This document shows, piece by piece, positions 1,840-20,548 of a DNA stretch of 20,548 nucleotides; within the stretch, counting starts at the first letter, position 1, and every line of letters starts with the position of its first letter. A program made the position numbers and the translations under genes. Location: IMG/VR virus record IMGVR_UViG_2872698443_000003, one strand, 5' to 3'. The notes under the pieces are model-generated. The model saw only the letters and a program-made list of their open reading frames with translations. It ran no database searches and had not been told where the DNA came from. Origin of the DNA: a virus (Duplodnaviria > Heunggongvirae > Uroviricota > Caudoviricetes).

Positions 1840-1854
1840 TGGTGTCCCCTGCAG
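1840..1854 (-). other. attR core: TGGTGTCCCCTGCAG, reverse complement of the 3' end of tRNA-Arg (argW)
   Basis: Match to recalled argW 3' terminus CTGCAGGGGACACCA; orientation agrees with minus-strand int at the far end; lies immediately outside torI. Confidence 0.6.
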
Positions 1855-1927
1855 ACATCTACTTGAGGCGGCATGGGATTGATTGGAATGGTGTTTTTTA
1901 GATGTGAAAAATATTTTACCCGCTATT

Positions 1928-2128
1928 TTACCCATTAGCGCGGCTTAAGAGCTTATTTTTGAATTCACAATGGTCACGATATAACCATCTTGCTCGCCCG
2001 TGGATAACTTTGGCTTTTGGCAGGTCGCCGGACTTAATCCGGTCATAGATGAAGGTTTTACCAAAGCCAGTATCAGCCATGATGAATTTCAAATCAACCA
2101 GTGAATCAGGCTGTAGTTCGTGTTGCAT
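1928..2128 (-). CDS. torI: TorI, KplE1 excisionase/recombination directionality factor and Tor response-regulator inhibitor, 66 aa
   Basis: Track ORF 1928..2128; protein MQHELQPDSLVDLKFIMADTGFGKTFIYDRIKSGDLPKAKVIHGRARWLYRDHCEFKNKLLSRANG matches E. coli K-12 TorI as recalled. Confidence 0.9.
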   Translation of the reverse strand: MQHELQPDSLVDLKFIMADTGFGKTFIYDRIKSGDLPKAKVIHGRARWLYRDHCEFKNKLLSRANG

Positions 2129-2171
2129 GAGTGCTATCTCCGAATAGGGAATCGAACCTGCAAATCAGGTA

Positions 2172-2194
2172 ATAAAAAACCGCCATCAGGCGGC
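2172..2194 (-). terminator. Rho-independent terminator (stem CCGCC/GGCGG, loop ATCA, T-run on the minus strand)
   Basis: Hairpin 2180-2193 followed on the minus strand by TTTTTTATT (plus-strand A-run 2174-2179); stop codon of the upstream small ORF lies in the loop. Confidence 0.55.
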
Positions 2195-2353
2195 TTGGTG
2201 TTCTTTCAGTTCTTCAATTCGAATATTGGTTACGTCTGCATGTGCTATCTGCGCCCATATCATCCAGTGGTCATAGCAGTCGTTGATGTTCTCCGCTTCG
2301 ATAACTCTGTTGAATGGTTCTCCATTCCATTCACCTGTGACTCGGAAGTGCAT
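2186..2353 (-). CDS. Small hypothetical protein, 55 aa (MHFRVTGEWNGEPFNRVIEAENINDCYDHWMIWAQIAHADVTNIRIEELKEHQAA), below the track's length cutoff
   Basis: Manual translation; ATG 2353 preceded by GGAG at about 8 nt; ends inside the terminator loop. Confidence 0.45.
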   Translation of the reverse strand: MHFRVTGEWNGEPFNRVIEAENINDCYDHWMIWAQIAHADVTNIRIEELKEHQAA

Positions 2354-2433
2354 TTATCATCTCCATAAAACAAAACTCGCCGTAGCGAGTTCAGATAAAA
2401 GAAATCCATCAATTGGTTAGGGTTTTTGTAATT

Positions 2434-2625
2434 CTACGAATTATGTTGTTTTTTAGCTTCAGCTTTCCATTCATCAAAGGCAGTGTCTTTGTTCATGGTG
2501 CTGATATTGATCTTACGGTCAATATCATATACACGCCACTCACCGTTAGGCCTCTCTTCGCATCTAACTAAGTATGAATTGCCATTAATATCTATGCGTC
2601 TGTCTATTTGCATGAACATTTTCAA
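2434..2625 (-). CDS. Hypothetical prophage protein, 63 aa
   Basis: Track ORF in the leftward operon, no overlap with better ORFs. Confidence 0.5.
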   Translation of the reverse strand: MKMFMQIDRRIDINGNSYLVRCEERPNGEWRVYDIDRKINISTMNKDTAFDEWKAEAKKQHNS

Positions 2626-2736
2626 TTTTCGAACCCTCTTTAATATGCATTTTTTGCTATTTCAGTAGTTTACTATTGATGAGGCGTTATTATACACACT
2701 TCATTAATGCAAGCATCTTTATGCTATGCTACTAAT

Positions 2737-3018
2737 TTAGCAATTGATATTTACCTTTATCGCGTATACCTTAACCGGTTTATCGCCGAAGTGGGGATGT
2801 GTGATTGTCTTGATTTCATATCCACCATACGGAACATCAATTCTACGGCTGGAATCGTCGCGCTTCGGATATCCCTTTGTGATAATCAGGCGGTCATACT
2901 CCCGGAACATAATTCGCTTATTCCAATAGTCATTACACAGGCGATACTCTTCCGTTTTCTCTCCTCGAATCATGGCATCGAAGTATTCACCTTTGACGGC
3001 AAGTTGCAGGTTAGCCAC
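2737..3018 (-). CDS. Hypothetical early-operon protein, 93 aa from GTG start (track ORF extends to 3087)
   Basis: GTG 3018 preceded by AGGAGG at 6 nt; the longer track start would overlap the upstream gene by 77 nt. Confidence 0.55.
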   Translation of the reverse strand: MANLQLAVKGEYFDAMIRGEKTEEYRLCNDYWNKRIMFREYDRLIITKGYPKRDDSSRRIDVPYGGYEIKTITHPHFGDKPVKVYAIKVNINC

Positions 3019-3577
3019 GGTTAACCTCCTGCGGCGGCTCTGGTAGCGGCATCCAGTGTGACGGCTCACATACCCCCTCAACACCATTCATGTAAAAGAA
3101 TTGAAATAACCCTTTACCTTTGTGAAACCCTACCATCTGCTCTTTTGTGTCTGAACAATAAACCAAAACATCTTCTTCGTTTGGCATTCGCTCACTACAG
3201 CTTATCCAACTATCCGGAGTTACCGGAGAGTTGCCCGATAGCTGGTTCAACTTGTAAGTTTGGCTTACAGGTTCGGCTTTCAGTTCTGCTATGCGCTTTT
3301 TTGCTGTTTCCAGCTCATCCAGCAGCGCCAAGACGGTAGCCGGATTGGCTGCGGCGATGAATTCAGCATTGGCCTGCTGTTCCATTTGGAAATCTTCATC
3401 GAAGCCGCTTTCAGGATGCGCTCCTTCAATTCTGCAAATGGGAAGATATCCAACAACGTCACGATGAATTAGCGCATCACCAGCATCAAGCCTCTCCTCT
3501 CCATATTCTAGCGACCACACACCACACGTTGCTTTCTCTGCCGCCTCACGCAGTGCCTGATAGTCAATCTTGCTCAC
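3011..3577 (-). CDS. Ead/Ea22-like N-terminus plus DUF551-like C-terminus, lambdoid early accessory protein, 188 aa
   Basis: Track ORF; N-terminus [24 protein letters not shown]... and C-terminal WISCSERMP...HWMPLPEPP resemble Ea22/DUF551 proteins (recalled family features). Confidence 0.6.
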   Translation of the reverse strand: MSKIDYQALREAAEKATCGVWSLEYGEERLDAGDALIHRDVVGYLPICRIEGAHPESGFDEDFQMEQQANAEFIAAANPATVLALLDELETAKKRIAELKAEPVSQTYKLNQLSGNSPVTPDSWISCSERMPNEEDVLVYCSDTKEQMVGFHKGKGLFQFFYMNGVEGVCEPSHWMPLPEPPQEVNRG

Positions 3578-4056
3578 TGGTCGCCTCCTTTGCGAAGCTG
3601 GTCGGCGAACAAACGTACACTAGACGCTTCACTGCGTAGAAACTTAACGGCATAATCAAAACCACCTCGTTCTGCGTCGTCTGCTCCGTTGTCGAGGTTA
3701 TCTGCGTACATCTCTACCCCCTGCGCCCGTACTTCAGCCAGGAAAGCATCGGTAGATGGGGTGTTAAGTGAAAAGTCCTGTCGGCCTGATTTCAGATACG
3801 CAATGGCGATCTTTGTTGCTGCGCATTCGACAGCGAATTTCTCTTTTTCAGCAGCCATCTTCGCGCACTTGGCCTCAAGGTTATCAATCGTGATTCCAGC
3901 AGAACGACACTCCCGCAACGCCGTTTCCAGTTTTGATTCAAGTTCACCGAACTTACGCACCAGATATTCAGCGTTTGTTTCGTTAACCTTTAAATCACTT
4001 GGGATGCATTTACCTTTCAGAAATCCATCCATCTCAATTAGTGACATTTGTTTCAT
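3574..4056 (-). CDS. Coiled-coil Ea22-like early protein, 160 aa from the internal ATG (track start 4074 is GTG)
   Basis: ATG 4056 overlaps the stop of the upstream 54-aa ORF in an ATGA motif; stop overlaps the next start (ATGA at 3574-3577). Confidence 0.5.
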
Positions 4057-4217
4057 TTCTTCCCACTCCGCCACATTGCATTCAGATATTTGTTGTCATT
4101 AACAGAACCGAAACTATTTCTCTTAAGCAATTCCTCTCTCGATGGCATTGGCTTTACGCGTTGGCGAATAATCATTTCTGCCGGAAGAATGCCGGGATTG
4201 TATGCAAGTCCTCTCAT
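4053..4217 (-). CDS. Small hypothetical protein, 54 aa ([54 protein letters not shown])
   Basis: Manual translation; ATGA overlaps at both ends (4214-4217 and 4053-4056); GGAGAG upstream. Confidence 0.4.
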
Positions 4218-4504
4218 GATTTACTCTCCACGAACTGGTCAACGGCCATGCTAAGTGACACACCTAAAGTATCGATATGCTGCTGAATATCCTGTAGCGT
4301 CCGCGCTTGAGATAACAGAATTTCACGGTTGCATAACTCTTTAACCAGATGCTCAAACTTGCTGTAATAACCGATACGGCTTAGTGTTTCTTTCCCTGCA
4401 TTCTCACCTTCTTTGATAATTCCTCTTTCGCTAAGAATCAGGTCGTGTTTGGTTCCGGTAATAACGTATTTGCCGAGGTCGATGTTTAGCTTCATTGTTT
4501 TCAT
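4214..4504 (-). CDS. Hypothetical protein, 96 aa from ATG 4504 (track ORF 4214..4657 has a longer, overlapping start)
   Basis: ATG 4504 preceded by GAGGAA at about 8 nt and lies 10 nt after the upstream stop. Confidence 0.5.
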
Positions 4505-4514
4505 TGTTAATTCC

Positions 4515-4811
4515 TCAGTCATTACTGATAGCGCCATAGCGTGAGCGGTAATTACGCAGGCGCGGGTCGATATATTCAGGGAAGTGGGTATATGTGGCTT
4601 TGCGGAATGGTCGGATTGATGTCTGGTAAATTCGCTCTCGTTCTTCTTTCTCTGCAAGCCATATACAGTGGCGAAATTCCTTTTCTTCTTTCGTTTCCTG
4701 CGGTAGCGACATTATCCGGTCGTAGTTTTTCCTGAATTTATCCAGCACCTCCGATACGGAATTGCCGGAACAGCGGCGCGCGTCGTCCGCACCATACAGA
4801 GGCGCTGGCAT
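4515..4811 (-). CDS. Hypothetical basic protein, 98 aa
   Basis: Track ORF; AGGAG 6 nt upstream of ATG 4811. Confidence 0.55.
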   Translation of the reverse strand: MPAPLYGADDARRCSGNSVSEVLDKFRKNYDRIMSLPQETKEEKEFRHCIWLAEKEERERIYQTSIRPFRKATYTHFPEYIDPRLRNYRSRYGAISND

Positions 4812-4824
4812 GATTTTCTCCTGA

Positions 4825-5340
4825 TTAAATTGCGTGAATAGCGTGACGAGGGAAGGGGAGGGTTACTGGCGCAAAAGGTATATCGTCGTCAAACTCCATA
4901 GGTGGTTCGCTGTGATTTACCTGCTTCTGAGGCTGCTGTTTTTGTTGCTGACCGTTATTTCGCTGAGGTGAAGACTGTTCATTGCTTCCTTGCTTGCCAC
5001 CAAGCATTTGCATGGTTCCACCAACGCCCACGATAACTTCGGTAGTGAACCGATCCTGTCCGCTTTGATCCTGCCATTTTCTTGTCCGCAATTTTCCTTC
5101 AAGATAAACCTCAGAGCCTTTTCGCAGATATTCGCTGGCAATTTCTGCCAGTTTCCCGCTCATTACCACACGGTGCCACTCCGTCTGCTCCTTTTGCTCT
5201 CCAGTTTGCTTATCACGCCATTGTTCTGACGTAGCAACTATAAGGTTTGCAAATGCCGTTCCTGATGGTGAATATCTGATTTCTGGATCATGCCCAAGGC
5301 GACCAATAATGATCACCTTATTTACGCCTCTACTTCCCAT
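4825..5340 (-). CDS. ssb: Phage single-stranded DNA-binding protein with a 15-residue extension after the canonical DDDIPF tail, 171 aa
   Basis: N-terminal OB-fold region closely matches E. coli SSB as recalled ([51 protein letters not shown]...[10 protein letters not shown]); C-terminus reads ...[24 protein letters not shown]. Confidence 0.88.
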
Positions 5341-6048
5341 TTATGCCGCCTGTTTTAGTTCGTTAACTCTGATGTTCATTACCTGAACGCATTTAGCCTG
5401 CGCATCCTCATTGCCAGCCATTAATTGCCAGTCATGCTGATAACGTTCTATGAGTTTTTTCTTGTCAGTTTCTGTTGATGCATAATCGCTGAAGTCTTTC
5501 AGGATTTGTTCGCAGTCAACCGATGGAGATTTCTGGTTGGTATTTTCTGGTGATGGTTTGTTATCTGATGCTGGGATTGCCCAGCCCGGCAGCGATGGAG
5601 GGAGCCAGTAAAATCCTGTTCCATCCTTCAGTTTTGCCCTGTGCCACCCCTGCTTTTTATCGGGAGATGTTTGTGCGAAACCTTCCTCAAGGTTATACAG
5701 ATACCGACCGATTCCCCACTGAACGGCAGCGCGCTTCATTGCACCGGAACGACCACCTTTGACGGCTTCTACCTGCGTGTTTTCAGCAGCATCCCATTTG
5801 GTTACCCATTCGGAATCAATCTTTATTGATATGCCGCATTCAACGCCGCCGTTGTTGGGAATATCGCGGTATTCATTGCGCCATCCTGCTTTGCCACAAA
5901 CATCGTCAAGGCGTTTCATGATTGCCCGGTTCGTAACATAAGCCAGCACCATAGCCCACACCTTGCCATCGCGTGTTTTACCGCTTTGCTGTATTCGCCA
6001 TTCGATATCTTCAGGGCAGAATGGCTCATCGAATTTGTTCAAATCCAT
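5341..6048 (-). CDS. Rad52/Sak-type single-strand annealing recombinase, 235 aa
   Basis: Track ORF directly upstream of and abutting ssb; motifs resembling the Rad52/22 family (recalled, not searched). Confidence 0.55.
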   Translation of the reverse strand: MDLNKFDEPFCPEDIEWRIQQSGKTRDGKVWAMVLAYVTNRAIMKRLDDVCGKAGWRNEYRDIPNNGGVECGISIKIDSEWVTKWDAAENTQVEAVKGGRSGAMKRAAVQWGIGRYLYNLEEGFAQTSPDKKQGWHRAKLKDGTGFYWLPPSLPGWAIPASDNKPSPENTNQKSPSVDCEQILKDFSDYASTETDKKKLIERYQHDWQLMAGNEDAQAKCVQVMNIRVNELKQAA

Positions 6049-6056
6049 AATTCACC

Positions 6057-6227
6057 TCAGAATGGACATGGCCCAAGGAAATAACGCTGGTTTAATACTT
6101 CGACTCGGGACAAATTAAGGCATACCCGCATTCCTTCGCGGTCACCATTATGGCGATACCAGAGAGCTTTTTGCGTGTACATGCGTCTCTGTAACTTGCT
6201 CTCCTTCACTGTGGTTGCAAGTGACAT
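6057..6227 (-). CDS. Small hypothetical ORF, 56 aa, strong SD (GGAGAT) but overlaps the 6148..6306 ORF out of frame
   Basis: Manual translation (MSLATTVKESKLQRRMYTQKALWYRHNGDREGMRVCLNLSRVEVLNQRYFLGPCPF). Confidence 0.3.
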   Translation of the reverse strand: MSLATTVKESKLQRRMYTQKALWYRHNGDREGMRVCLNLSRVEVLNQRYFLGPCPF

Positions 6228-6306
6228 GAATATCTCCTTCGTTACCGATTAATTCTTTCATCTGACGAATGAATTCTTCGTCTGACCAGTTATCTGTAAA
6301 ACTCAT
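6148..6306 (-). CDS. Small acidic hypothetical protein, 52 aa
   Basis: Manual translation; start ATG overlaps the upstream stop in ATGA at 6303-6306. Confidence 0.35.
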   Translation of the reverse strand: MSFTDNWSDEEFIRQMKELIGNEGDIHVTCNHSEGEQVTETHVHAKSSLVSP

Positions 6307-6455
6307 TTCCTGCGATACCACGGAATGTTGATCGCTGATTTCATCGCTTTATTTGCTTCAAGCCACATTTTGGAATCACCAATAAATCTGGCTATTACTG
6401 CTTTGTTCTGTGCAGCACGAAGCATCTGGTGATTAATGACTATTTCATTGCGCAT
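6303..6455 (-). CDS. Small hypothetical protein, 50 aa (MRNEIVINHQMLRAAQNKAVIARFIGDSKMWLEANKAMKSAINIPWYRRK)
   Basis: Manual translation; GGAGG 5 nt upstream of ATG 6455. Confidence 0.4.
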   Translation of the reverse strand: MRNEIVINHQMLRAAQNKAVIARFIGDSKMWLEANKAMKSAINIPWYRRK

Positions 6456-6574
6456 AACGCCTCCAGTTGTTTCTTTGCTGCTCTGATTAATTGTTTAACT
6501 CGGCGTGATAATTCAGATTCGTGCGGGTAGAAAGCGGACATGACGCCGCTACCCGCGAGCTGAAAGTGCATCAT
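6440..6574 (-). CDS. Small hypothetical protein, 44 aa from the internal ATG; the longer track ORF 6440..6679 would read through a terminator
   Basis: AAGGAG 7 nt upstream of ATG 6574; terminator 6641-6664 sits inside the longer track ORF. Confidence 0.4.
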   Translation of the reverse strand: MMHFQLAGSGVMSAFYPHESELSRRVKQLIRAAKKQLEALCAMK

Positions 6575-6640
6575 GGGTAACTCCTTATATTTGATTGCAT
6601 AACGAAAACGCCTCAAGTGAAGCGTTATTGGTATGCATAT

Positions 6641-6664
6641 AAAAAAGCCCCCACACTGGAGGGC
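6641..6664 (-). terminator. Rho-independent terminator on the minus strand
   Basis: Minus-strand RNA GCCCUCCAGUGUGGGGGC followed by UUUUUU. Confidence 0.55.
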
Positions 6665-6759
6665 AAAGAAGATTTCCAATAATCAGAACAAGTCGGCTCC
6701 TGTTTAGTTACGAGCGACATTGCTCCGTGTATTCACTCGTTGGAATGAATACACAGTGC

Positions 6760-6963
6760 TTATTCGCGAGCTTTGAGCATTGCGTCTGCAAACTTATATG
6801 CAGCGCTTGCTGCATAATTAACAGCTCCATCAGAATCATTATCGATAATCGATGGATTGCTAATCATTGCTTGCATAGCCTTTGCCGCGAAGTAATCACG
6901 TAATGTCGCATCACTTGCCATTTCTGGGCGTTTGATATCTGCTTCGTAAAACTCGCACATCAC
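6760..6963 (-). CDS. Hypothetical early protein, 67 aa
   Basis: Track ORF; start overlaps the upstream stop (ATGA at 6960-6963). Confidence 0.5.
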   Translation of the reverse strand: MMCEFYEADIKRPEMASDATLRDYFAAKAMQAMISNPSIIDNDSDGAVNYAASAAYKFADAMLKARE

Positions 6964-7256
6964 TCACCTCCCAGAGCCTTGATGATTGCTGCAAAACCTT
7001 TATTAACAGCTCCATACCATTCTGGATATGTTGTCGTTGTTCTATTTTTGGATTGCTTAAGTAATAACTGAAGTGCTTCGAGAAGGTCAGGTGCTGCCGC
7101 TATTAGATTGGCATCTTCAATGCATTGAACTTCCTCACAGATTGCAATATACGAACGCCAGCCTGCGCCATTTTCAAGAGAGTCTGCCTGGATGATTTTA
7201 ATCTCATCGCCATCCATCATTATTTCCCACTTACCTTCAGTACCTTTAAATTCCAT
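6960..7256 (-). CDS. Hypothetical early protein, 98 aa
   Basis: Track ORF in the leftward operon. Confidence 0.5.
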   Translation of the reverse strand: MEFKGTEGKWEIMMDGDEIKIIQADSLENGAGWRSYIAICEEVQCIEDANLIAAAPDLLEALQLLLKQSKNRTTTTYPEWYGAVNKGFAAIIKALGGE

Positions 7257-7276
7257 GTTAGCCTCTGTTGTTTATG

Positions 7277-7307
7277 CCAAAAATAAAGGCCACCATCAGG
7301 CAGCCTT
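7277..7307 (-). terminator. Rho-independent terminator, related in sequence to the one at 2172-2194
   Basis: Minus-strand stem of about 9 bp (two G-U pairs), loop UGAU, then UUUAUUUUUGG; stop of the 7296..7496 ORF lies in the loop. Confidence 0.5.
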
Positions 7308-7496
7308 GTTGTTCAGTTTACCAAGTTCTCTGGCAATCATTGCCGTCGTTCGTATTGCCCATTTATCGACATATTTCCCATCTTCCATTACAGGAAACAT
7401 TTCTTCAGGCTTAACCATGCATTCCGATTGCAACTTGCATCCATTGCATCGTTTGAATTGTCCACACCATTGATTCTTATCAATAGTCGTAGTCAT
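7296..7496 (-). CDS. Cys-rich small protein, 66 aa, possible zinc-binding
   Basis: Track ORF; C-x4-C-x2-C-x5-C spacing in the N-terminal half. Confidence 0.5.
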   Translation of the reverse strand: MTTTIDKNQWCGQFKRCNGCKLQSECMVKPEEMFPVMEDGKYVDKWAIRTTAMIARELGKLNNKAA

Positions 7497-7574
7497 ACGG
7501 ATAGTCCTGGTATTGTTCCATCACATCCTGCGGATGCTCTTCGAACTCTTCAAATTCTTTTTCCATATCTCACC

Positions 7575-7901
7575 TCAAATAAGTGGTTTGCTGCCTAATT
7601 TCATTTTCTGGCGACCAACACAAGTCACACCCATTTCACTGCGTGGCTTGCTGTACCATGTGCGCTGATTCTTGCGCTCAATACGTTGCAGGTTGCTTTC
7701 AATCTGTTCGTGGTATTCAGCCAGCACCGTAAGGTCTATCGGATTCAGTGCGCTTTCTACTCGTGATTTCGGTTTGCGATTCAGCGAGAGAATAGGGCGG
7801 TTAACTGGTTTTGCGCTTACCCCAACCAACAGGGGATTTGCTGCTTTCCATTGAGCCTGTTTCTCTGCGCGACGTTCGCGGCGGCGTGTTTGTGCATCCA
7901 T
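7575..7901 (-). CDS. N: Antitermination protein N (lambda-like), 108 aa from the internal ATG
   Basis: MDAQTRRRERRAEKQAQWKAANPLLVGVSAKPVNRPILSLNRKPKSRVESALNPIDLTVLAEYH... matches lambda N as recalled; the track ORF's 30 extra N-terminal codons are not part of N. Confidence 0.9.
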   Translation of the reverse strand: MDAQTRRRERRAEKQAQWKAANPLLVGVSAKPVNRPILSLNRKPKSRVESALNPIDLTVLAEYHEQIESNLQRIERKNQRTWYSKPRSEMGVTCVGRQKMKLGSKPLI

Positions 7902-8011
7902 CTGGATTCTCCTGTCAGTTAGCTTTGAGTAACGCGCCGTGATGCTTATCTCCACGGTTGCTGTCTTGCAGCTGCATTTCGCGCTACTCAAAGCCTTCTG
8001 CTTTGAATGCT

Positions 8012-8042
8012 GCCCTTCTTCAGGGCTTAATTTTTAAGAGCC
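8012..8042 (-). promoter_or_regulatory. nutL site: boxA (GCTCTTAAAAATTAA) and boxB hairpin (GCCCTGAAGAAGGGC)
   Basis: Minus-strand sequence GAGGCTCTTAAAAATTAAGCCCTGAAGAAGGGCAGC, near-identical to lambda nutL as recalled. Confidence 0.85.
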
Positions 8043-8082
8043 TCACCTTCAATGGTGGTTAGTGCGTCCTGCTGATGGCTAA

Positions 8083-8111
8083 ATAGTACGATTTGTACTT
8101 TATCGAGTCAA
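8083..8111 (-). promoter_or_regulatory. Candidate pL promoter (-35 TTGACT, 17-nt spacer, -10 TACTAT) with operator palindrome AGTAC-N5-GTACT at 8085-8099
   Basis: Read on the minus strand upstream of nutL; palindrome overlaps the spacer and -10. Confidence 0.5.
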
Positions 8112-8174
8112 TACAAAATGTTCTAAATATAATTGGTTTTTTATAACGCTTTGTATTTAATGGGTTTATATTTT

Positions 8175-8206
8175 GGAAAAAGAAAACCCGACACTAAGGT
8201 CGGGTT
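8175..8206 (-). terminator. Rho-independent terminator downstream of cI
   Basis: 8-bp stem AACCCGAC/GTCGGGTT with 6-nt loop, followed on the minus strand by TTCTTTTTCC. Confidence 0.6.
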
Positions 8207-8236
8207 ATTGTTGTGTGCTTTAGAGTGGTGAGGCTG

Positions 8237-8896
8237 TTAACTAAATGTCTCTTCAGGCCACTGGCTGGCGATAACTTTCCCTACAACGGAACAGCTATCA
8301 TTGCATGGGATCATTGGATATTGCGGGTTTAGTGGCTGTAGGAACACCTGACCGCTATCCCTGATCAGTTTCTTGAAGGTAAACTCGTCACCACCAAGTC
8401 TGGCTATGCAGAAATCACCTGGCTCAACAGCCTGCTCAGGGTCAACGAGAATTAACATCCCGTCAGGAAAGCTTGGCTTGGATCCTGTTGGCGCGGTCAT
8501 GGAATTACCTTCAACTTCAAGCCAGAACGCACAATCACTGGCTTTTTTGGTTGTGCTGACCCATCTCTCCGCATCACCTTTGGTAAAGGTTCTAAGCTCA
8601 GGCGAGAACATCCCGGCCTGAACATGAGAAAAAACAGGGTACTCATATTGTTTTTTAACGGGGGCAGATGAGTATTCGCCAACAGGTGAAAATGTACCGT
8701 CGTGGTTGAATGAGACGTTATCAATACCAAGGTATTTAAACACCACACCAATCTCGTCAAGAGATGGATGACGAGATCCGCGCAACCAGTGACCAATTCC
8801 ACCCTGCGTCATACCAAGCTCTTCAGCTAACTTCTCTTGAGTTATGCCGAGCTCTTTCATTCTGGATCTAGCCAGTTCATACCATTTCATTTTCAT
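8237..8896 (-). CDS. cI: CI-type prophage repressor: lambda-identical C-terminal dimerisation/autocleavage domain, divergent N-terminal HTH domain
   Basis: From ...[39 protein letters not shown] onward the protein matches lambda CI as recalled; N-terminus ([37 protein letters not shown]) does not. Start is ambiguous (ATG 8896, 8890 or 8932; possibly leaderless). Confidence 0.85.
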
Positions 8897-8952
8897 ACCC
8901 TTATTATTACGCTCTGTACTAAAACCATCCATGCACAAGATGTATTTTTTGT

Positions 8953-8981
8953 TTGCATTCTAAAAGTACATATCGTATTAT
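8953..8981 (+). promoter_or_regulatory. Candidate pR promoter (-35 TTGCAT, 17-nt spacer, -10 TATTAT) with operator half-palindrome AGTAC-N5-GTATT at 8965-8979
   Basis: In the 70-110 bp cI-cro divergent region; motif related to the pL-side palindrome. Confidence 0.45.
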
Positions 8982-9007
8982 TGTTTCATGGTTACTATGG
9001 AGGGCAT

Positions 9008-9223
9008 ATGAGCAACCTACGAAAATATCGAGAGTCACTGAATATCTCTCAAACAACACTTGCTAAGGCAGTTGGATGCACACAGGGAGCTATCGGACAT
9101 TGGGAATCTGGTCGTCGCTTCCCAGACCTTAAAACATGCCGTGCTCTTGTTGAGTGCCTAAACAAGTTAGGCGCAAAAGTCAGTCTTGATGACGTGTTCC
9201 CGCCGGAACACAAAGCCGCTTAA
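9008..9223 (+). CDS. cro: Cro-like HTH (XRE-type) repressor, 71 aa
   Basis: ATG 9008 with GGAGGG upstream; HTH ISQTTLAKAVGCTQGAIGHWESG; position between the operators and nutR. Track ORF 8837.. has a spurious N-terminal extension. Confidence 0.75.
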   Translation: MSNLRKYRESLNISQTTLAKAVGCTQGAIGHWESGRRFPDLKTCRALVECLNKLGAKVSLDDVFPPEHKAA

Positions 9224-13313: not shown

Positions 13314-13695
13314 GCAACAACAGCAAGCCGCAATCAACGCCATCCTCGCAACACCACTCGATAAAGACAAGCCAGTCACCATCCGCATTACTGACTACAA
13401 GCGCAACCTTGACCAGAACGCAAAATTTCACGCGATGCTGGCGGATATCGCACGTCAGGTTCAATGGTGCGATAAGTGGTTAAAACCAGAACAATGGAAG
13501 GTTTTGTTGATTAGCGGTCATGCAGTGGCAACAAAGCAGGAAGCTGATGTTTTACCCGGCCTTGAAGGCGAATACGTCAACATTCGCGAAAGCAGCGCGC
13601 AGATGAGCGTGAAGCGTATGGCAAGTCTTATCGAGTACACAACAGCATGGGCTATTGGTCAGGGTGTCAGATTTACCGACAGGAGGTACGAATGA
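13285..13695 (+). CDS. ninB: NinB (Orf) recombination mediator, 136 aa
   Basis: Track ORF; similar in length and in the central ...LDQN... region to lambda NinB as recalled. Confidence 0.7.
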
Positions 13696-13868
13696 GGCGA
13701 CAGCGACGAAGTTTCACCGACATCATCTGCGAAAACTGCAAATACCTTCCAACGAAACGCTCCAGAAATAAACGCAAGCCAATCCCAAAAGAATCTGACG
13801 TAAAAACCTTCAATTACACAGCTCACCTGTGGGATATCCGGTGGCTAAGATATCGTGCGAGGAAATGA
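13692..13868 (+). CDS. ninE: NinE, 58 aa
   Basis: [58 protein letters not shown] matches lambda NinE as recalled; ATG 13692 with AGGAGG upstream; ATGA overlap with ninB. Confidence 0.85.
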
Positions 13869-14212
13869 CAATGGATTATTCACAGTTAAGTGATTTTGAA
13901 ATTAACAGAATGGTAGGAGACATAATTTTTAAAGGCCTTTGGGCAAGTAAACCGGAAACATCAGGGAATAACACCAACAAATGGTATTACGGAAATGCTG
14001 ATACAACTTTTGAGCCATTAAATCATTTGCCTGACTACTGCAATGATCCGAGCGCTTCATGGCCGATTATTGAGAAATACAGGATTTCTATCTTAGACCA
14101 GTTAACTGAATGGTGTGTGGATGCAAAAGGCGTAAGCCCAATATTTGATACCAGACCTCTCCGCGCCGCCATGATTGTCTTTCTCATGATGCAGGACGCC
14201 AATAATGCTTAG
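13865..14212 (+). CDS. Hypothetical nin-region protein, 115 aa (possibly DUF2591/NinX-like)
   Basis: ATG 13865 overlaps the ninE stop (ATGA); track ORF 13829.. has a short upstream extension. Confidence 0.5.
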
Positions 14213-14381
14213 CCCATCCCAATCCCTTCAATACCAGAAAGAAAGCGTCGAGCGGGCTTTAACGTGCGCTAACTGCGGTCAGAAGCTGCATGTGCTGGAA
14301 GTTCATGTGTGTGAGCACTGCTGCGCAGAACTGATGAGCGATCCGAATAGCTCAATGTACGAGGAAGAAGACGATGAATGA
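14205..14381 (+). CDS. ninF: NinF, 58 aa, below the track cutoff
   Basis: Manual translation [58 protein letters not shown] matches lambda NinF as recalled. Confidence 0.8.
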
Positions 14382-15096
14382 GTTAATAAATGGCAATGCC
14401 ATCAAAATGACAAGCATTGAAATCGCTGAGTTGGTGGGTAAGCGTCATGACAATGTGAAACGTACCATCGAAACGCTGGCTAAAAATGGTGTTATCCGGC
14501 TTCCTCAAATTGAGGTTTCCGAAAGAATCAATAACTTAGGGTTCAATGTTCAGTACGAGCATTACGTCTTCGAGGGCGAACAAGGTAAGCGAGACAGTAT
14601 TGTCGTTGTTGCCCAGTTGTCGCCAGAGTTCACCGCTCGCCTTGTTGACCGTTGGCGAGAGCTTGAAGAAGCTGCGGTTAATATCCCCAAAACGCTACCG
14701 GAAGCGTTGCGCCTTGCTGCTGATCTTGCTGAGCAGAAAATGCAGCTGGAAAACCAGCTCGCAATTGCCGCACCTAAAGTTGAGTTTGCCGATCGCGTTG
14801 GCGAGGCCAGCGGAATTTTGATTGGAAACTTTGCAAAGGTTGTTGGAATTGGTCCAAACAAACTGTTTGCGTGGATGCGCGATCACAAAATCCTTATTGC
14901 TTCAGGTTCCCGGCGCAATGTGCCAATGCAGGAATATATGGATCGCGGCTATTTCGCAGTGAAAGAAACAGCGGTCAACACAAATCACGGAATACAGATA
15001 TCGTTCACCACAAAAATCACCGGGCGTGGTCAACAGTGGCTGACCAGAAAGCTGCTCGATAACGGAATGCTGAAAGTAACCGGGGAGGCTGCTTAA
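14374..15096 (+). CDS. Rha-family phage regulatory protein / antirepressor (Rha-like N-terminus, KilAC/Ant-like C-terminus), 240 aa
   Basis: Track ORF; N-terminal [30 protein letters not shown] is typical of Rha proteins; family assignment from recalled features. Confidence 0.6.
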   Translation: MNELINGNAIKMTSIEIAELVGKRHDNVKRTIETLAKNGVIRLPQIEVSERINNLGFNVQYEHYVFEGEQGKRDSIVVVAQLSPEFTARLVDRWRELEEAAVNIPKTLPEALRLAADLAEQKMQLENQLAIAAPKVEFADRVGEASGILIGNFAKVVGIGPNKLFAWMRDHKILIASGSRRNVPMQEYMDRGYFAVKETAVNTNHGIQISFTTKITGRGQQWLTRKLLDNGMLKVTGEAA

Positions 15097-15386
15097 TGGC
15101 TAACCTACGCAAAGAAGCGCGCAACAGAGAATGCCAGGTACGTATTTACGGCGTATGCAATGGCAACCCTGAAACTACAGTTCTGGCACATTACCGGATG
15201 GCTGGAATTTGCGGAACGGGAATGAAACCTGACGACCTGATCGGCGCATGGGCTTGTAGCGCGTGTCACGATGAAATCGACCGACGTACCCATAATATCG
15301 ACAACAAAGACGCCAGACTTTACCACCTCGAAGGCGTGATCAGGACGCAGGCGATACTGCTGAAGGAGGGGAAGATTAAGTCATGA
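15096..15386 (+). CDS. YbcO-like (DUF1364) protein, putative nuclease, 96 aa
   Basis: Resembles DLP12 YbcO as recalled (CQVRI.GVCNGNPET.VLAH.R..G.CGTG.KP.DL...ACSACHDEIDRRTH). Confidence 0.7.
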   Translation: MANLRKEARNRECQVRIYGVCNGNPETTVLAHYRMAGICGTGMKPDDLIGAWACSACHDEIDRRTHNIDNKDARLYHLEGVIRTQAILLKEGKIKS

Positions 15387-15745
15387 ACGAATATCAGTTT
15401 GTGCTTCCATACCCGCCGTCGGTGAACACCTACTGGCGAAGACGGGGAAGCCAATACTACATCAGCGATAAAGGCCAGAAATACCGAAAAGACGTTCAGA
15501 AAATCATCCGCCAACTCAAGTTAGACATTTTCACCAAATCACGACTCCGCATCAAAGTAATCGCAGACGTTCCAGACTCCCGCCGCCGCGACCTCGATAA
15601 CATCCTGAAAGGTTTACTCGACTCACTTATCCACGCCGGATTTGCGGAAGACGACGAGCAATTCGATGACATTCGCGTAATTCGTGGCGTGAAAGTACCA
15701 GGCGGAAGGCTTGGAATAAAAATCACCGAACTGGAGAACGCATGA
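15383..15745 (+). CDS. rusA: RusA-type Holliday-junction resolvase, 120 aa
   Basis: Length and motifs (LPYPPSVN.YWR, DRRRRDLDN) match RusA as recalled. Confidence 0.8.
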   Translation: MNEYQFVLPYPPSVNTYWRRRGSQYYISDKGQKYRKDVQKIIRQLKLDIFTKSRLRIKVIADVPDSRRRDLDNILKGLLDSLIHAGFAEDDEQFDDIRVIRGVKVPGGRLGIKITELENA

Positions 15746-15930
15746 ACGCCACAATTCAAACGATACCAGAGCTTCTTATCCAGACACGAGGCAATCAGAC
15801 CGAAGTGGCGAGGATGCTTTCCTGCGCAAGAGGAACAGTGCTCAAGTACAACCGAGACAGCAAAGGTGAGCGTCACGTAATAGTTAACGGCGTCCTGATG
15901 GTCAAACAGGGCAAGAGGGGAAGACCATGA
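15742..15930 (+). CDS. ninH: NinH, 62 aa
   Basis: TIPELLIQTRGNQTEVARMLSCARGTVLKYNRDSKGERHVIVNGVLMV resembles lambda NinH as recalled. Confidence 0.75.
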   Translation: MNATIQTIPELLIQTRGNQTEVARMLSCARGTVLKYNRDSKGERHVIVNGVLMVKQGKRGRP

Positions 15931-16136
15931 GACTCGAAAGCGTAGCTAAATTTCACTCGCCAAAAAGCCCGATGATGAGCGACTCACCACGGGCCACGGC
16001 TTCTGACTCTCTTTCCGGTACTGATGTGATGGCTGCTATGGGGATGGCGCAATCACAAGCCGGATTCGGAATGGCTGCATTCTGCGGTAAGCATGAACTC
16101 AGCCAGAACGACAAACAAAAGGCTATCAACTATCTG
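15927..16136 (+). pseudogene. Q: Late antiterminator Q, N-terminal 70 codons only, interrupted by IS1
   Basis: MRLESVAKFHSPKSPMMSDSPRATASDSLSGTDVMAAMGMAQSQAGFGMAAFCGKHELSQNDKQKAINYL matches lambda Q residues 1-70 as recalled; the track ORF then reads into the IS1 end. Confidence 0.9.
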
Positions 16137-16191
16137 GGTAATGCTGCCAACTTACTGATTTAGTGTATGATGGTGTTTTTGAGGTGCTCCA

Positions 16192-16467
16192 GTGGCTTCT
16201 GTTTCTATCAGCTGTCCCTCCTGTTCAGCTACTGACGGGGTGGTGCGTAACGGCAAAAGCACCGCCGGACATCAGCGCTATCTCTGCTCTCACTGCCGTA
16301 AAACATGGCAACTGCAGTTCACTTACACCGCTTCTCAACCCGGTACGCACCAGAAAATCATTGATATGGCCATGAATGGCGTTGGATGCCGGGCAACTGC
16401 CCGCATTATGGGCGTTGGCCTCAACACGATTTTACGTCACTTAAAAAACTCAGGCCGCAGTCGGTAA
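16192..16467 (+). CDS. insA: IS1 InsA, 91 aa
   Basis: [43 protein letters not shown]... recognised. Confidence 0.95.
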
Positions 16468-16889
16468 CCTCGCGCATACAGCCGGGCAGTGACGTCATCG
16501 TCTGCGCGGAAATGGACGAACAGTGGGGCTATGTCGGGGCTAAATCGCGCCAGCGCTGGCTGTTTTACGCGTATGACAGGCTCCGGAAGACGGTTGTTGC
16601 GCACGTATTCGGTGAACGCACGATGGCGACGCTGGGGCGTCTTATGAGCCTGCTGTCACCCTTTGACGTGGTGATATGGATGACGGATGGCTGGCCGCTG
16701 TATGAATCCCGCCTGAAGGGAAAGCTGCACGTAATCAGCAAGCGATATACGCAGCGAATTGAGCGGCATAACCTGAATCTGAGGCAGCACCTGGCACGGC
16801 TGGGACGGAAGTCGCTGTCGTTCTCAAAATCGGTGGAGCTGCATGACAAAGTCATCGGGCATTATCTGAACATAAAACACTATCAATAA
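16386..16889 (+). CDS. insB: IS1 InsB' transposase reading frame, 167 aa (expressed as InsAB' by -1 frameshift)
   Basis: Track ORF matches IS1 InsB as recalled. Confidence 0.95.
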
Positions 16890-16969
16890 GTTGGAGTCAT
16901 TACCGTAATGTTGTTCTGAGAAATACTCATATTGGTTGCCTTGATCTTTTTTCATACGATAACACGCAG

Positions 16970-17728
16970 GTGCTTGTAAAAACCAATACCAATAAAATTA
17001 GCTATGGTAACTCATATGAAAAAATTAATTTCCCGGGAGTTCAGATTCATGATTTTAACGCTATGGTTGAGACTTGGACATCATCTATATCAATAGATAA
17101 TCTTGTTATAAATGGTAGTGGTAGGTTATCTAGAATATCTAACTCATTTACATTTAATACGACATCATCGGATTCTCGCGTATTTGATTTTTGGCAGTAT
17201 ACATCTGATGGAGCTGCTGTTTGTAATATTTACAGAAATGAAATTAGCTCAGATTCTCAGTTTCATCATGATGGTACAACTATAGGAGTGGTGATACCAA
17301 TAGCAAATACCGATAATAAGACACTGCGAGTTGTTATTGATAAAAATGTTTTTAAATGTCAAGGGAAAGAAGTCACATTATCTTTCATGGCTGTAAATGG
17401 GTTGCCATCTGTTCAAACTAAAATTTCCGTGAACTTGATATTGAGCTATTCTTCATCATTAGGCGTTCAAAGAGTATATTCATTCGGTGAGTTTGATATT
17501 GGTAGTTCATGGGGGTTGAAAAAATTCACATTAGCAATACCTTTTGAAGGTCTTGTGTCCGCAAGCGATGCGAATGCTTATTTATCCTTTTCGCTTCCAA
17601 AATCACAAGAAGTAAACATCATCATAGCCAATGTTAATTTATGCAAAGGAAATGTTGCTGTGCAGGGGCCGAGTGATTTAAAGGATTGGGATTTACTATC
17701 TAGATCAATTGCATACTACGGTAGTTAA
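16970..17728 (+). CDS. Low-GC Ser/Thr/Asn-rich hypothetical protein, 252 aa; possibly the C-terminal receptor-binding part of a tail fibre or another surface-interaction protein, probably 5'-truncated
   Basis: Track ORF with GTG start; the frame is open upstream into the IS1 right end (no stop from 16772 by my reading); composition resembles fibre distal domains. Function not recognised. Confidence 0.4.
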   Translation: MLVKTNTNKISYGNSYEKINFPGVQIHDFNAMVETWTSSISIDNLVINGSGRLSRISNSFTFNTTSSDSRVFDFWQYTSDGAAVCNIYRNEISSDSQFHHDGTTIGVVIPIANTDNKTLRVVIDKNVFKCQGKEVTLSFMAVNGLPSVQTKISVNLILSYSSSLGVQRVYSFGEFDIGSSWGLKKFTLAIPFEGLVSASDANAYLSFSLPKSQEVNIIIANVNLCKGNVAVQGPSDLKDWDLLSRSIAYYGS

Positions 17729-17732
17729 TATT

Positions 17733-17759
17733 CCAGCCCCGAGATAATCTCGGGGCTGG
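17733..17759. terminator. Bidirectional terminator / perfect 13-bp inverted repeat (CCAGCCCCGAGAT-A-ATCTCGGGGCTGG) between convergent genes
   Basis: Seen directly in sequence. Confidence 0.6.
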
Positions 17760-17765
17760 CATTAT

Positions 17766-19109
17766 TCATCTAACTTCTACTTTATATCGAACTCCGCGTC
17801 CAAGTAAGATAGAAATGAAAGATGACAAAATCATCAAGGCAATTAAGAACACGATGCTATCAAACATGTATGCCAAGCCTATAGGGGGAGACAGCATTAT
17901 TGCCAATGCCCTGCAATAGAAAGATGCTATGAAAGAAGAGTAGAATATATCGCTTCTTAATCTAATGTTTTTTGCTTTACATACACGACCAAGTATCCAG
18001 CCAAAAAATGCAGTCATGAATAAACCGCCGACAAAGCCAAAGTAAACATAACCAGCAAGATCAAAGTGACTTGTTGGCCCCCTTGCTACATCATCCCCAA
18101 GATACCATACCTTCCAAATCATTCTGCCAACATCATTGGCTGAGTAGTCATATCCAAGCATGTTTTGCATTATCCCATTCCCGGCTATATATCCGAATAG
18201 TTGTAGAAATGCATTTTTTACTTGCAACATGTCAATAACTGCATTTGGGAGTGAGAAGTAGTATGCGTCTCCATTTGCAAATATCCGCATGAATAACATT
18301 TCAACAACAACAGGGGCGTCCATGTAGTTTGATTTTGTATACCCTATTGCTGCTGAATTATATGATATTAGGAATAGCACATAAGCAACAAGAGATACGG
18401 ATATAATTAAAAAAACAACCGCACTTTTTATCGTTAGCCTTGGTTTACGACCTGTAAAAATATAAATTGCAATTATAGCAACTAGCAAATGCTCTAGGAG
18501 AGAAAGTTTTGCGCCTGAAACAAAAGACGCAATTATAGATATAATTATAGCTATAAGTGCTATTGATGCTCTTTTCAACCCTCTGGACTTTACTGCCATG
18601 ACAGAAAGATATCCAGTGAGCATCAGTCTTACAACATCAAGTATCCTTACGATAGCACCAAGACCTCTGTTTGCCTCAAACCTAGACTGTACAAAGGCAT
18701 CAAAAGATATACTTTTTATATATATTACCGTTAGTGATATATAAAATATTAGCAACAAATAGAATATTATTGATGAGTTTTTTTTGCATGTATTAAATAC
18801 CTTGTCAGTTGTTCCAAGTAGTCTAAATTTAGGTGTTCTATATGCCAAGTGCATAAACGAAGCCAATACAATCCAGTTTAGAATAATCATGTAGAACAAG
18901 TGATCAGGAATGTAGTTGTAATTCCATAGCATTAATACTATTGCGTAAGAAGTTCCAAATGTGAAGGTAAAATAGAAGTGTATTGGATCTATCACTCCTA
19001 CTGCCAGCTTCCTTACCGTCATGTAACATAAAACAGTTGTTACTGTAGCGTACAGTAAATACTCTGACCAATTTGAAAATATAAAATAAAAAAAGTCTAT
19101 ATCACTCAT
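17766..19109 (-). CDS. Polytopic inner-membrane protein, 447 aa, about 30% GC, Wzy/O-antigen-polymerase-like or GtrS-like; candidate lysogenic-conversion gene
   Basis: Hydrophobic segments throughout the track ORF; very low GC versus about 50% in the rest of the prophage; sits in the int-proximal slot where P22/KplE1-type phages carry O-antigen modification genes. Confidence 0.55.
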   Translation of the reverse strand: MSDIDFFYFIFSNWSEYLLYATVTTVLCYMTVRKLAVGVIDPIHFYFTFTFGTSYAIVLMLWNYNYIPDHLFYMIILNWIVLASFMHLAYRTPKFRLLGTTDKVFNTCKKNSSIIFYLLLIFYISLTVIYIKSISFDAFVQSRFEANRGLGAIVRILDVVRLMLTGYLSVMAVKSRGLKRASIALIAIIISIIASFVSGAKLSLLEHLLVAIIAIYIFTGRKPRLTIKSAVVFLIISVSLVAYVLFLISYNSAAIGYTKSNYMDAPVVVEMLFMRIFANGDAYYFSLPNAVIDMLQVKNAFLQLFGYIAGNGIMQNMLGYDYSANDVGRMIWKVWYLGDDVARGPTSHFDLAGYVYFGFVGGLFMTAFFGWILGRVCKAKNIRLRSDIFYSSFIASFYCRALAIMLSPPIGLAYMFDSIVFLIALMILSSFISILLGRGVRYKVEVR

Positions 19110-19390
19110 AGCTTTACCATACTTGCTTCATCTCACAACAAGATTCAGATTGAATTTATCACACTTTATCACTTTAATGCAGAGCTTCCCACTAACAACT
19201 TCATGAACAGAACATCTTAACAATCATAACATGCTAAAAAATTGTTTAGCATTTGACTTTGTGTACATCATGATGTAAGCGCCAAATTACATGGTTAATA
19301 ATAGACCAATTGCATGAGAAAGAAATTAGACACACAAAGCTTTGTACTGGGTTGCAAGGCTTTGTGCTATTCGATAGTTGTTAAGGTGGA

Positions 19391-20548
19391 TCACTCAGGC
19401 TTTTCATCAAGCCAGTCCGCCCACCACTGCATCATTTCTCTGCGCTTATCGAGATACTGCGCATGGTTGTAAATACCGCGCACAGATCCGCCGTTGGCAT
19501 GTGCCAGTTGCATTTCAATAGCATCAGCAGGCCATTCGTTCTCGTTCATAATCGTGCTGAATTCATGCCTGAATCCGTGACCGCTTTCCAGACCCTCATA
19601 GCCGATTTGTTTGATCACAAGCAATACCGCGTTCTCGCAGATTGGCTTCTTCTTATCGTTGCGCCCGGCAAAAACAAACTCTGAGACTGGTTTGGTGATT
19701 GAGCTTAGCGTAGTGAGAAGTTCAACCACCTGGTCTGACATCGGGACCACATGAATTTTGCGTCCCTTCATCACACTGGCGTCGATGGTGATAATCCTGT
19801 TTTCAAAATCGACGTTCTTCCATAGCATGGAACGAAGTTCTTTTGTTCTGAGGGCTGTGTAGCGTAAAACTTTGGTTGCAATGAGCGATACGATACTTCC
19901 TGAAAATGTTGCCAGTGCTTTGTTGAATGCCGGGATCTGGTCTGCAGGAAGAAACGGGAAGTTCTTCTTGCGGTATCCCTTCATGGCGTCAGCAAGGTCA
20001 GGTGCCGGGTTATATTTAGCCCTGCCGGTGACAATAGCGTAACGGAAAACCTCGCCGCATCTTCTGCGGGCTTTATTTGCTCGCTCCATTGCACCGCGAT
20101 CTTCAAATCTGCGGATTACTTCCAGCAGTTGCATCGGCTCAATATCCTGAATTTCAAGGCCGCCGATGATAGGTAAAATGTCGTCATCAAACATTTTTGC
20201 AAGTTCATTTGCATAGCCTACTGACCAGACTTGCTTCTTGTGCTCGTACCATTCCTTGTAAATCGCACTAAATGAATTGTTGTTAGACGAAGCCTTTTTC
20301 GCCTTTACCGGATCGATGCCAACCGAGATGTCTTTCCTCGCAGTCCATGCCTTATCCCTTGCTTCCTGCAAAGTCATAAGCGGATATTTTCCGACGGTCA
20401 GGATTTTCTCCTTACCGTCAATCTTGTAGCGAAGCTGCCATACCTTTTTCCCGGATACAGGAACATAAAGGTACAGGCCATTACCATCGAGAAGGCGGTA
20501 TGGTTTTTCTTTCGGCTTTGCTGCTTCAATCTGCTTAACGGTGAGCAT
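19391..20548 (-). CDS. intS: P4-family tyrosine integrase (IntS-type, argW-specific), 385 aa; start codon is the last three bases of the window
   Basis: MLTVKQIEAAKPKEKPYRLLDGNGLYLYVPVSGKKVWQLRYKIDGKEKILTVGKYPLMTLQEARDKAW... matches K-12 IntS as recalled; catalytic R..HxxR..Y region present. Confidence 0.9.
   Translation of the reverse strand: MLTVKQIEAAKPKEKPYRLLDGNGLYLYVPVSGKKVWQLRYKIDGKEKILTVGKYPLMTLQEARDKAWTARKDISVGIDPVKAKKASSNNNSFSAIYKEWYEHKKQVWSVGYANELAKMFDDDILPIIGGLEIQDIEPMQLLEVIRRFEDRGAMERANKARRRCGEVFRYAIVTGRAKYNPAPDLADAMKGYRKKNFPFLPADQIPAFNKALATFSGSIVSLIATKVLRYTALRTKELRSMLWKNVDFENRIITIDASVMKGRKIHVVPMSDQVVELLTTLSSITKPVSEFVFAGRNDKKKPICENAVLLVIKQIGYEGLESGHGFRHEFSTIMNENEWPADAIEMQLAHANGGSVRGIYNHAQYLDKRREMMQWWADWLDEKPE

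Follow-up and report, generated by a model that had tools for sequence, protein, structure and literature searches.

KplE1 (CPS-53) of Escherichia coli K-12 is a defective, excision-competent prophage remnant at the argW-dsdC site, in which remnants of gtr and of tail-fibre genes are found. It measures 10.2 kb, lacks a repressor and does not respond to SOS induction (PMC2951348). Plasmid-supplied TorI together with the chromosomal IntS suffices for its excision in vivo, and this excision is highly sensitive to the dosage of IntS (PMC2951348). The recombination module is common to HK620, Sf6 and CUS-3, and among argW phages it has been described as highly conserved and interchangeable, substrates of both KplE1 and HK620 having been used (PMC2951348, PMC3509656). 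The DNA analysed here, the 20,548 nucleotides of the virus record IMGVR_UViG_2872698443_000003 (this whole stretch is called the window below), covers the argW-dsdC interval of an E. coli chromosome, read in the reverse orientation relative to K-12. It holds a compact element that an earlier annotation, made from the letters alone (the original prediction), had called KplE1-type. The element spans positions 1840 to 20548, or 18,709 bp from the attR core to the start codon of intS, in agreement with the approximately 18.7 kb first given. Our analysis indicates that it is very probably a chimeric defective prophage, made by one recombination between two IS1A copies within tandem argW prophages, in which the early programme is left and whose induction would be abortive.

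The element is a new instance of a well-known kind, namely a defective lambdoid prophage with the KplE1/HK620 recombination module that arose by deletion mediated by an insertion sequence (IS). Lambda dv plasmids, like the defective lambda prophages employed in recombineering, were made from lambda by deletion in the laboratory and keep the immunity region, O-type replication and pL functions; such derivatives can replicate or kill their host upon derepression without making particles. The element in the window is likewise a deletion derivative of a lambdoid phage, but it is a natural one, formed via IS1, and it keeps an integrase, an excisionase and att sites. The phages HK620, Sf6, CUS-3, N7 and HK633 resemble it in IntS (98-99% identity), in the predicted 249-bp attP (97% identity to that of N7), in the torI-proximal gene order and in the lambdoid pL-N-nut/pR-O layout. 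However, these phages are 38-42 kb long and possess lysis, packaging and virion genes as well as an intact Q, all of which are lacking in the element. The phages mEp043, vB_EcoP-720R6 and Sf101 have O, primase-helicase, N, cI, cro and nin genes that are 97-100% identical to those of the element, whereas mEp043 and vB_EcoP-720R6 differ from it in having another integrase and excisionase (SfX-like according to the mEp043 record) and complete late regions.

An IS1 junction within a tandem prophage locus

In a set of 5,426 complete E. coli genomes, positions 1-16904 of the window were found at 100% identity in two, TUM9754 and S163-2, including the IS3-family element in dsdC and the IS1 in Q. Positions 16905-20548 are 100% identical to a stretch lying 29,263 bp further along the TUM9754 chromosome, and the only overlap of the two matching stretches is a 768-bp IS1. 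Direct comparison showed that the window is the TUM9754 locus minus exactly 29,263 bp, with zero other differences in 20.5 kb. The suggestion in the original prediction that the element arose by deletion is therefore borne out, the deletion being one between two IS1 copies.

The locus in TUM9754 runs from dsdC through attR, torI, the early region and a Q gene interrupted by IS1 to the rest of Q, lysis genes and myovirus-type virion genes. These are followed by an acyltransferase gene, dinI, a first integrase gene (intS#1), a middle att site, a recombinase gene, a second IS1A, a tailspike fragment, wzy, a second integrase gene (intS#2) and attL/argW. The interval that is missing from the window contains the remainder of Q, the holin, endolysin, Rz, terS, terL, portal, capsid, sheath, tube, baseplate and fibre genes, intS#1 and the middle att.

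Both IS1 copies of TUM9754 are on the same strand, and the one in Q (copy A) is flanked by a 9-bp target duplication, AACTATCTG. The IS1A of the window, 768 bp long (16137-16904, + strand), is recombinant and marks the scar of the deletion; its left flank is that of the Q copy, its right flank is that of the second copy (copy B), and a target duplication is absent. Such mixed flanks, together with an exact deletion between same-strand IS1 copies, are the signature of homologous recombination between direct repeats. The two copies differ by a sole single-nucleotide polymorphism, at 16622, where the window carries the copy-A allele, so that the crossover lay within 16623-16904.

Very probably, then, a single homologous recombination between direct IS1A copies within the tandem argW prophage pair deleted the 29,263 bp holding the rest of Q, the lysis, packaging, head and tail genes, intS#1 and the middle att. 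In the product of this crossover, a 42-kb lambdoid phage is represented by its early half and an older, P22-like remnant by its integrase end. Since the window equals the tandem locus minus the IS1-IS1 interval, its intS belongs to the older remnant and not to the phage that contributed torI, cI and the replicon. A lambdoid phage of ~42 kb with a contractile tail can be named as the source of attR, torI and the early region, and the remnant of the older P22-like phage as that of IntS#2, an O-antigen polymerase and a 252-residue open reading frame (ORF). The assignment of int and torI to two different prophages lay beyond the reach of an annotation that saw the letters only.

Next to the IS1, at 16905-17728 (+ strand), lies the C-terminal fragment of a P22-type tailspike (ORF 16970-17728, 252 aa), with a weak match to the tail fibre family phrog_4492; this ORF is the C-terminal part of a 737-aa tailspike whose gene is intact in FDAARGOS_1248. 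It is followed on the opposite strand (17766-19109, -) by a gene for a Wzy-like O-antigen polymerase of 447 aa, recognised by TIGR04370 (44.3 bits against a cut-off of 40), by phrog_14022 and by its RefSeq name. Pfam gave no match for either the 447-aa or the 252-aa protein, and they were identified through NCBIfam, PHROGs and the relative with the intact gene. Lying beside intS, the polymerase is probably a serotype-modifying cargo of the older remnant.

In TUM9754 the second IS1 (L002 29320-30087) lacks a target-site duplication and cuts short the tailspike, for which FDAARGOS_1248 has the whole gene (737 aa). This indicates that an earlier IS1 rearrangement preceded the deletion seen in the window. 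The middle att of TUM9754 (L002 27990-28025) combines the P' arm from one phage with the other phage's P arm and is attP-like; it has 24 nt in common with argW, as against only 16-17 nt for attR of the window.

A third relative, the closed genome DETEC-P61 (NZ_CP116152.1, L009 41697-49501), carries a different, complementary IS1 deletion. It has lost dsdC, attR, torI, the whole early region and the head genes, and has kept the baseplate and fibre genes, IntS#1 and the older remnant. The argW locus in the lineage of TUM9754, S163-2 and DETEC-P61 is being eroded by IS1 in several directions, and the window is one outcome of this process. With the before state (TUM9754 and S163-2) and an alternative after state (DETEC-P61) both at hand, one can follow nucleotide by nucleotide how IS1 erodes a pair of prophages.

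Two sets of similar arrangements were considered and set aside. What looked like another compact element, with 17 kb between attR and intS (H7, in SCAID URN1-2021), is annotated as a tandem-prophage junction with a complete phage following. In that genome (L005 3037-4644) intS and torI are direct neighbours on either side of an att site; a tailspike lies upstream of them and the complete phage downstream, and tandem prophages at argW appear to be recurrent. H33 and similar matches, in which IS1 lies right beside intS in many genomes, are other IS1 insertions with a different junction.

Attachment sites and the recombination module

The right boundary of the element, beside dsdC, is formed by the 16-nt attR core ATGGTGTCCCCTGCAG (1839-1854, assigned to neither strand), which is the reverse complement of the published KplE1 core CTGCAGGGGACACCAT (PMC2951348). 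The core is thus present at this boundary of the element, and its attL copy is visible in the sister genome only. KplE1 has been excised in vitro with a 135-bp attR substrate whose primer positions are given (PMC3509656), and these positions place the matching region at 1817-1950 (likewise unstranded) in the window. Compared with K-12, attR has four substitutions within the aligned stretch and one further change in the primer region outside it (cattagc in the window, cattggc in K-12).

The intS start codon makes up the last bases of the window, and attL and argW therefore lie beyond it; a tRNA scan of the window found none. Provided that attL sits as it does in the sister genome, the core-to-core length is 18,870 bp. 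In modules of the KplE1/HK620 type, attL overlaps the promoter of intS and has arm sites for TorI and IntS; the attL of TUM9754 differs from that of K-12 at 6 positions. Joining the attL arm of the sister genome to the attR arm of the window gives a predicted attP of 249 bp, equal in length to the attP of phage N7 and with 7 mismatches to it (97% identity). Of the 249 positions of this predicted attP, 5 differ from the attP of the parental phage.

The excisionase gene torI (1928-2128, - strand), which encodes a recombination directionality factor and is so named by RefSeq on identical DNA, is the last gene of the leftward operon. Its product is identical to K-12 TorI in 66 of 66 residues, and the gene, which is at the far end from int, is separated from the attR core by 73 bp. 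At the other end, intS (IntS#2 of the older remnant; 19391-20548, - strand) encodes a tyrosine integrase of 385 aa with the Pfam arm-binding, central and catalytic domains. It is identical to K-12 IntS at 381 of 385 residues, and none of the four changes falls on R234, H324, R327, H350 or Y360. The integrases of the isolated temperate phages CUS-3, N7, HK633 and Sf6 are 98-99% identical to it. The retained IntS#2 and the deleted IntS#1 differ from each other at 9 of 385 residues; from K-12 IntS the former differs at 4 residues and the latter at 5.

The element is like KplE1 in its argW-dsdC site, 16-nt core, identical TorI, 99% identical IntS and near-identical attR, and also in that intS faces attL and torI is at the far end. 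Homology to K-12 KplE1 is confined, however, to the two ends, namely dsdC'-attR-torI (1241-2178) and intS (19314-20548), so that the name KplE1-type, which holds for the recombination module, does not extend to the rest of the element. Unlike KplE1, the element has kept its immunity and antitermination module (cI/cro/N) complete, together with a replicon and recombination genes. Possession of a repressor, and with it predicted SOS control, would be the main functional difference from K-12 KplE1. Like KplE1, it is a defective remnant, and one that is predicted to be competent for excision.

At the dsdC side, an IS3-family element splits dsdC, with transposase ORFs at 1-1229 and homology to K-12 dsdC restarting at 1241; the 3' part of dsdC ends at 1744, and the same insertion is present in TUM9754 and S163-2. 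The host has thus lost to this insertion dsdC, the activator of D-serine utilisation. A scan of the whole window against Rfam gave no family above threshold.

The early region

All the components that the original prediction had listed, namely int, torI, cI/cro, N with both nut sites, an origin, a primase-helicase, a single-stranded DNA-binding protein and an annealing protein, were found where it had placed them or close by. The cI gene (8237-8932, - strand) encodes a protein with helix-turn-helix and Peptidase_S24 domains, an Ala-Gly site and GNSM and FKKL (Ser/Lys) motifs, identical in 231 of 231 residues to cI of phage vB_EcoP-720R6; to judge from these features, it is an SOS-cleavable, LexA-like repressor. 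Divergent from it lies cro (9008-9223, + strand), which is 100% identical to that of vB_EcoP-720R6, followed by cII (9343-9636, + strand). A candidate pL with two operators of the AGTAC-N5-GTACT type is found at 8083-8124 (- strand), and a candidate OR/pR region at 8906-8981 (+ strand).

The antiterminator N (7575-7901, - strand) is of the lambda type, belonging to the Pfam family N36 of lambda N arginine-rich peptides (E 1.5e-26), and is 99% identical to N of phage mEp043. Both of its expected sites are present with boxA and boxB of the lambda type. In nutL (8012-8042, - strand) boxB is GCCCTGAAGAAGGGC (8012-8026) and boxA is GGCTCTTAA (8034-8042), as against CGCTCTTAA in lambda; nutR (9232-9263, + strand) has boxA CGCTCTTA at 9232 and boxB GCCCTGAAAAAGGGC at 9249. 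The nut sites are identical to those of the isolated phage vB_EcoP-720R6, and the boxA variant of nutL, being present in that phage, is presumably functional.

Rightward transcription would reach a gene for an O-type replication initiator (9808-10668, + strand; Pfam Phage_rep_O, E 1.1e-37), whose product is 100% identical to that of vB_EcoP-720R6 and 99.65% identical to that of mEp043. Inside this gene lies the origin (10162-10300, unstranded), with four 19-nt iterons of the form TGTCAC-N7-GTGACA (10162-10247) followed by an A-rich tract of 75% A+T. The next gene (10776-12656, + strand; phrog_239) encodes a primase-helicase of 626 aa with Toprim and DnaB-like ATPase domains, of which Toprim_2 and AAA_25 pass the Pfam cut-offs and DnaB_C falls below its own (23.8 against 27 bits); it is 99.84% identical over its full length to gp55 of mEp043. 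The replicon thus comprises both an O-type initiator with iterons in its own gene and a helicase.

Further to the right, the nin region (13285-15930, + strand) includes ninB, ninE, ninX, ninF, a KilAC/Ant antirepressor gene, ybcO, rusA and ninH. Of the nin and Q remnants of the original prediction, Q is indeed truncated, but the nin region is intact. Of the Q antiterminator gene (15927-16136, + strand) the first 70 codons are left, cut by IS1 after codon 70, compared with 207 codons in mEp043. The annotation of identical DNA by PGAP flags no pseudogene from torI to ninH. The antirepressor, of the Rha/KilAC (Ant) family (14374-15096, + strand), could, if expressed, inactivate repressors of other resident prophages. 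A minus-strand ORF of 134 aa (12712-13116) was treated as spurious, since PHROGs gave no match for it and it shares its position with two annotated phage ORFs on the plus strand.

From N to torI every gene is on the - strand, with terminator-like hairpins interspersed. A hairpin search placed one just upstream of torI (2177-2196) and others at 2373-2392, 6647-6664 and 7286-7307, all on the - strand. We infer from these hairpins, and in particular from the one just before torI, that torI would be reached only by N-antiterminated readthrough from pL after CI cleavage. The leftward operon includes ral (antirestriction, 7296-7496), cIII (6440-6574) and kil (6303-6455), all on the - strand, as are the genes for a Rad52/Rad22-type single-strand annealing protein (5341-6048; Pfam Rad52_Rad22, E 5.6e-25), the single-stranded DNA-binding protein (4825-5340; Pfam SSB, E 1.4e-37) and the anti-RecBCD protein Abc2 (4515-4811; phrog_656, E 2.3e-56). 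Accessory genes occupy 2186-4495 (- strand), comprising a phrog_676 ORF, a 63-aa ORF, ASCH, an ead/Ea22-like gene, a 160-aa hypothetical, DUF2737 and DUF5405.

Several small ORFs of the early region deserve a separate comment. The 63-aa ORF (2434-2625, - strand), which PGAP did not call on identical DNA, has a full-length match to phrog_16329 (E 8.5e-49); it lies within an AT-rich gap of 380 bp, with promoter-like sequence upstream and the terminator-like hairpin at 2373-2392, and it looks like a moron. Beside the Rad52-type gene, an ORF of 56 aa (6057-6227, - strand) that is unannotated in the sister genome matches phrog_1723 ('recombinase', E 9.4e-36). The ORF at 6760-6960 (- strand) matches only the C-terminal part of phrog_2201 (positions 156-215 of 226), and that at 13068-13313 (+ strand) only the C-terminal part of phrog_343 (positions 68-132 of 135); these two short ORFs look like mosaic-junction scars of the early region.

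With the established biology of lambda, HK620 and KplE1 in mind, one may propose the following SOS programme for the element. RecA-stimulated cleavage of CI would open pL and pR, and N acting at nutL and nutR would allow readthrough of terminators. On the left this would switch on kil and the recombination genes and, last of all, torI; on the right, it would switch on cro, cII, O and the primase-helicase. TorI, together with IHF and with IntS made from its own promoter overlapping attL, would then recombine attL with attR to release a circle of 18.9 kb. Replication of this circle by O and the primase-helicase would start at the iterons within the O gene, unless replication takes place in situ. 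The end would be abortive, consisting either in loss of the element or in a host that stops growing and is killed by Kil and by runaway replication, and no particles would be formed. Excision and replication, which the original prediction had regarded as still possible, are plausible after SOS induction, as the modules needed for them are intact when compared with the excisable K-12 KplE1 module and with those of isolated phages.

The late half of a complete phage is missing: Q is cut, and a lysis cassette, terminase and virion genes are absent from the window. With Q broken, and with neither lysis, packaging and virion genes nor cos or pac, induction would be abortive and there would be no specific transfer. 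Generalised transduction, or recombination with a lambdoid phage entering the cell, would be the only routes by which the element could be transferred.

Competing explanations and significance

Several points weigh against the model of a chimeric prophage with a surviving early programme. Excision, replication and SOS inducibility are deduced from sequence, and the promoter and operator assignments are consensus matches only. For attL and the intS promoter, which the window does not include, the sister genomes are the only source, and the integrase is not the original partner of the attR and torI found in the window (9 of 385 residues, and 5 of 249 positions through the P' arm). Finally, the source genome is not among the complete genomes searched.

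It is conceivable, though unlikely, that the element is a genuine deletion remnant that is inert, neither excising nor replicating, owing to the non-cognate IntS#2, to an altered intS or attL outside the window, to polarity of IS1 or to host factors. Such inertness would fit with an integrase that comes from a different element and is 9 residues away from IntS#1, with an attL beyond the window, and with the strong dependence of KplE1 excision on IntS dosage (PMC2951348). However, IntS#2 is nearer to the active K-12 IntS (4 differences) than IntS#1 is (5), the module is conserved and interchangeable among argW phages (PMC2951348, PMC3509656), and the genes for replication and regulation match their counterparts in isolated phages at 99.6-100% identity.

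We consider it very unlikely that the junction is an assembly artefact, in which the source strain has the full locus as in TUM9754 and the assembler joined two IS1 copies. The join does lie exactly within a 768-bp repeat that is present in dozens of copies per genome (38-40 places matching the query in TUM9754), both flanks are 100% identical to TUM9754, and the compact form with its junction of Q', IS1 and truncated tailspike was found in 0 of the 5,426 complete E. coli genomes. Yet a chance mis-join among dozens of IS1 copies would rarely connect neighbours in the right relative orientation, copy B is itself scarred by an earlier rearrangement, as seen from its missing target duplication, and the genuine IS1 deletion at the same locus in DETEC-P61, a closed genome of the same lineage, makes a true deletion much likelier.

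One may also speculate that the IS1 deletion created a nascent mobile element in a single step. According to this speculation, to which we give scant credence, an SOS-excised circle of 18.9 kb would replicate, or persist in the manner of lambda dv, and superinfecting lambdoid phages could then carry it further, by generalised transduction or by Rad52-type recombination along the long stretches it has in common with them. If this were true, the window would be a snapshot of a satellite-like element born from tandem prophages.

Finally, the original prediction had likened the element to a helper-dependent satellite or inducible island. It does carry an integrase, an excisionase, an initiator with its origin and a primase-helicase, a set that satellites also need, and at ~19 kb and with no virion genes it falls within the satellite size range. 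E. coli phage-inducible chromosomal islands (PICIs, e.g. EcCICFT073) are alike in size class, in int, in a primase-type replication gene, in an origin and in the absence of virion genes. PICIs are recognised by their own attachment sites, exclusive genes, helper-dependent and SOS-independent induction via AlpA, and specific packaging with a functional cos (PMC6092414); the element fails most of these criteria, and none of the defining features was found in it. Its attachment site is argW, which is that of the ordinary phages HK620, Sf6, CUS-3 and N7 (PMC2951348), and it shows neither island-exclusive genes nor a compact organisation kept across many genomes. Its sole repressor is a CI predicted to be autocleavable, with no AlpA annotated and no sign of AlpA/Stl induction independent of SOS, and it has no packaging module (cos, pac/terS or Rpp/Ppi).

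A search of the window for lambda cos, P2/P4 cos and P22 pac motifs within 1-3 mismatches found none, a negative that applies to these motifs and not to packaging signals of an unknown kind. Of the marks of P4-like satellites, Psu, Delta, Sid and the alpha primase are unannotated on identical DNA, and no P2/P4 cos was found in the window within 3 mismatches. That a helper lambdoid phage induces and packages the element, and that the compact form is maintained for this reason, is thus extremely improbable for an element that is a single deletion (with zero other differences) away from a full-length prophage locus, that is a singleton relative to the complete genomes, which has for its repressor the SOS-cleavable CI also found, without a single difference, in an isolated phage, and not a helper-sensing regulator, whose early genes with counterparts in two isolated phages are mostly 82-100% identical to them, and which lacks terS and a capsid-remodelling gene, the parental terS region falling inside the deletion with no copy retained.

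For annotation, the element carries the warning that a compact int-to-xis arrangement with a replicon is no evidence of a satellite. As to the biology of the strain, the host carries a kil and replication cassette predicted to be SOS-inducible, as well as a phage-derived Wzy-like O-antigen polymerase. The case is of low general interest, yet it is a tidy one of prophage decay and module shuffling, in which one crossover produced a chimera whose integrase and excisionase, although they come from different phages, still form a matched module of the KplE1/HK620 type.

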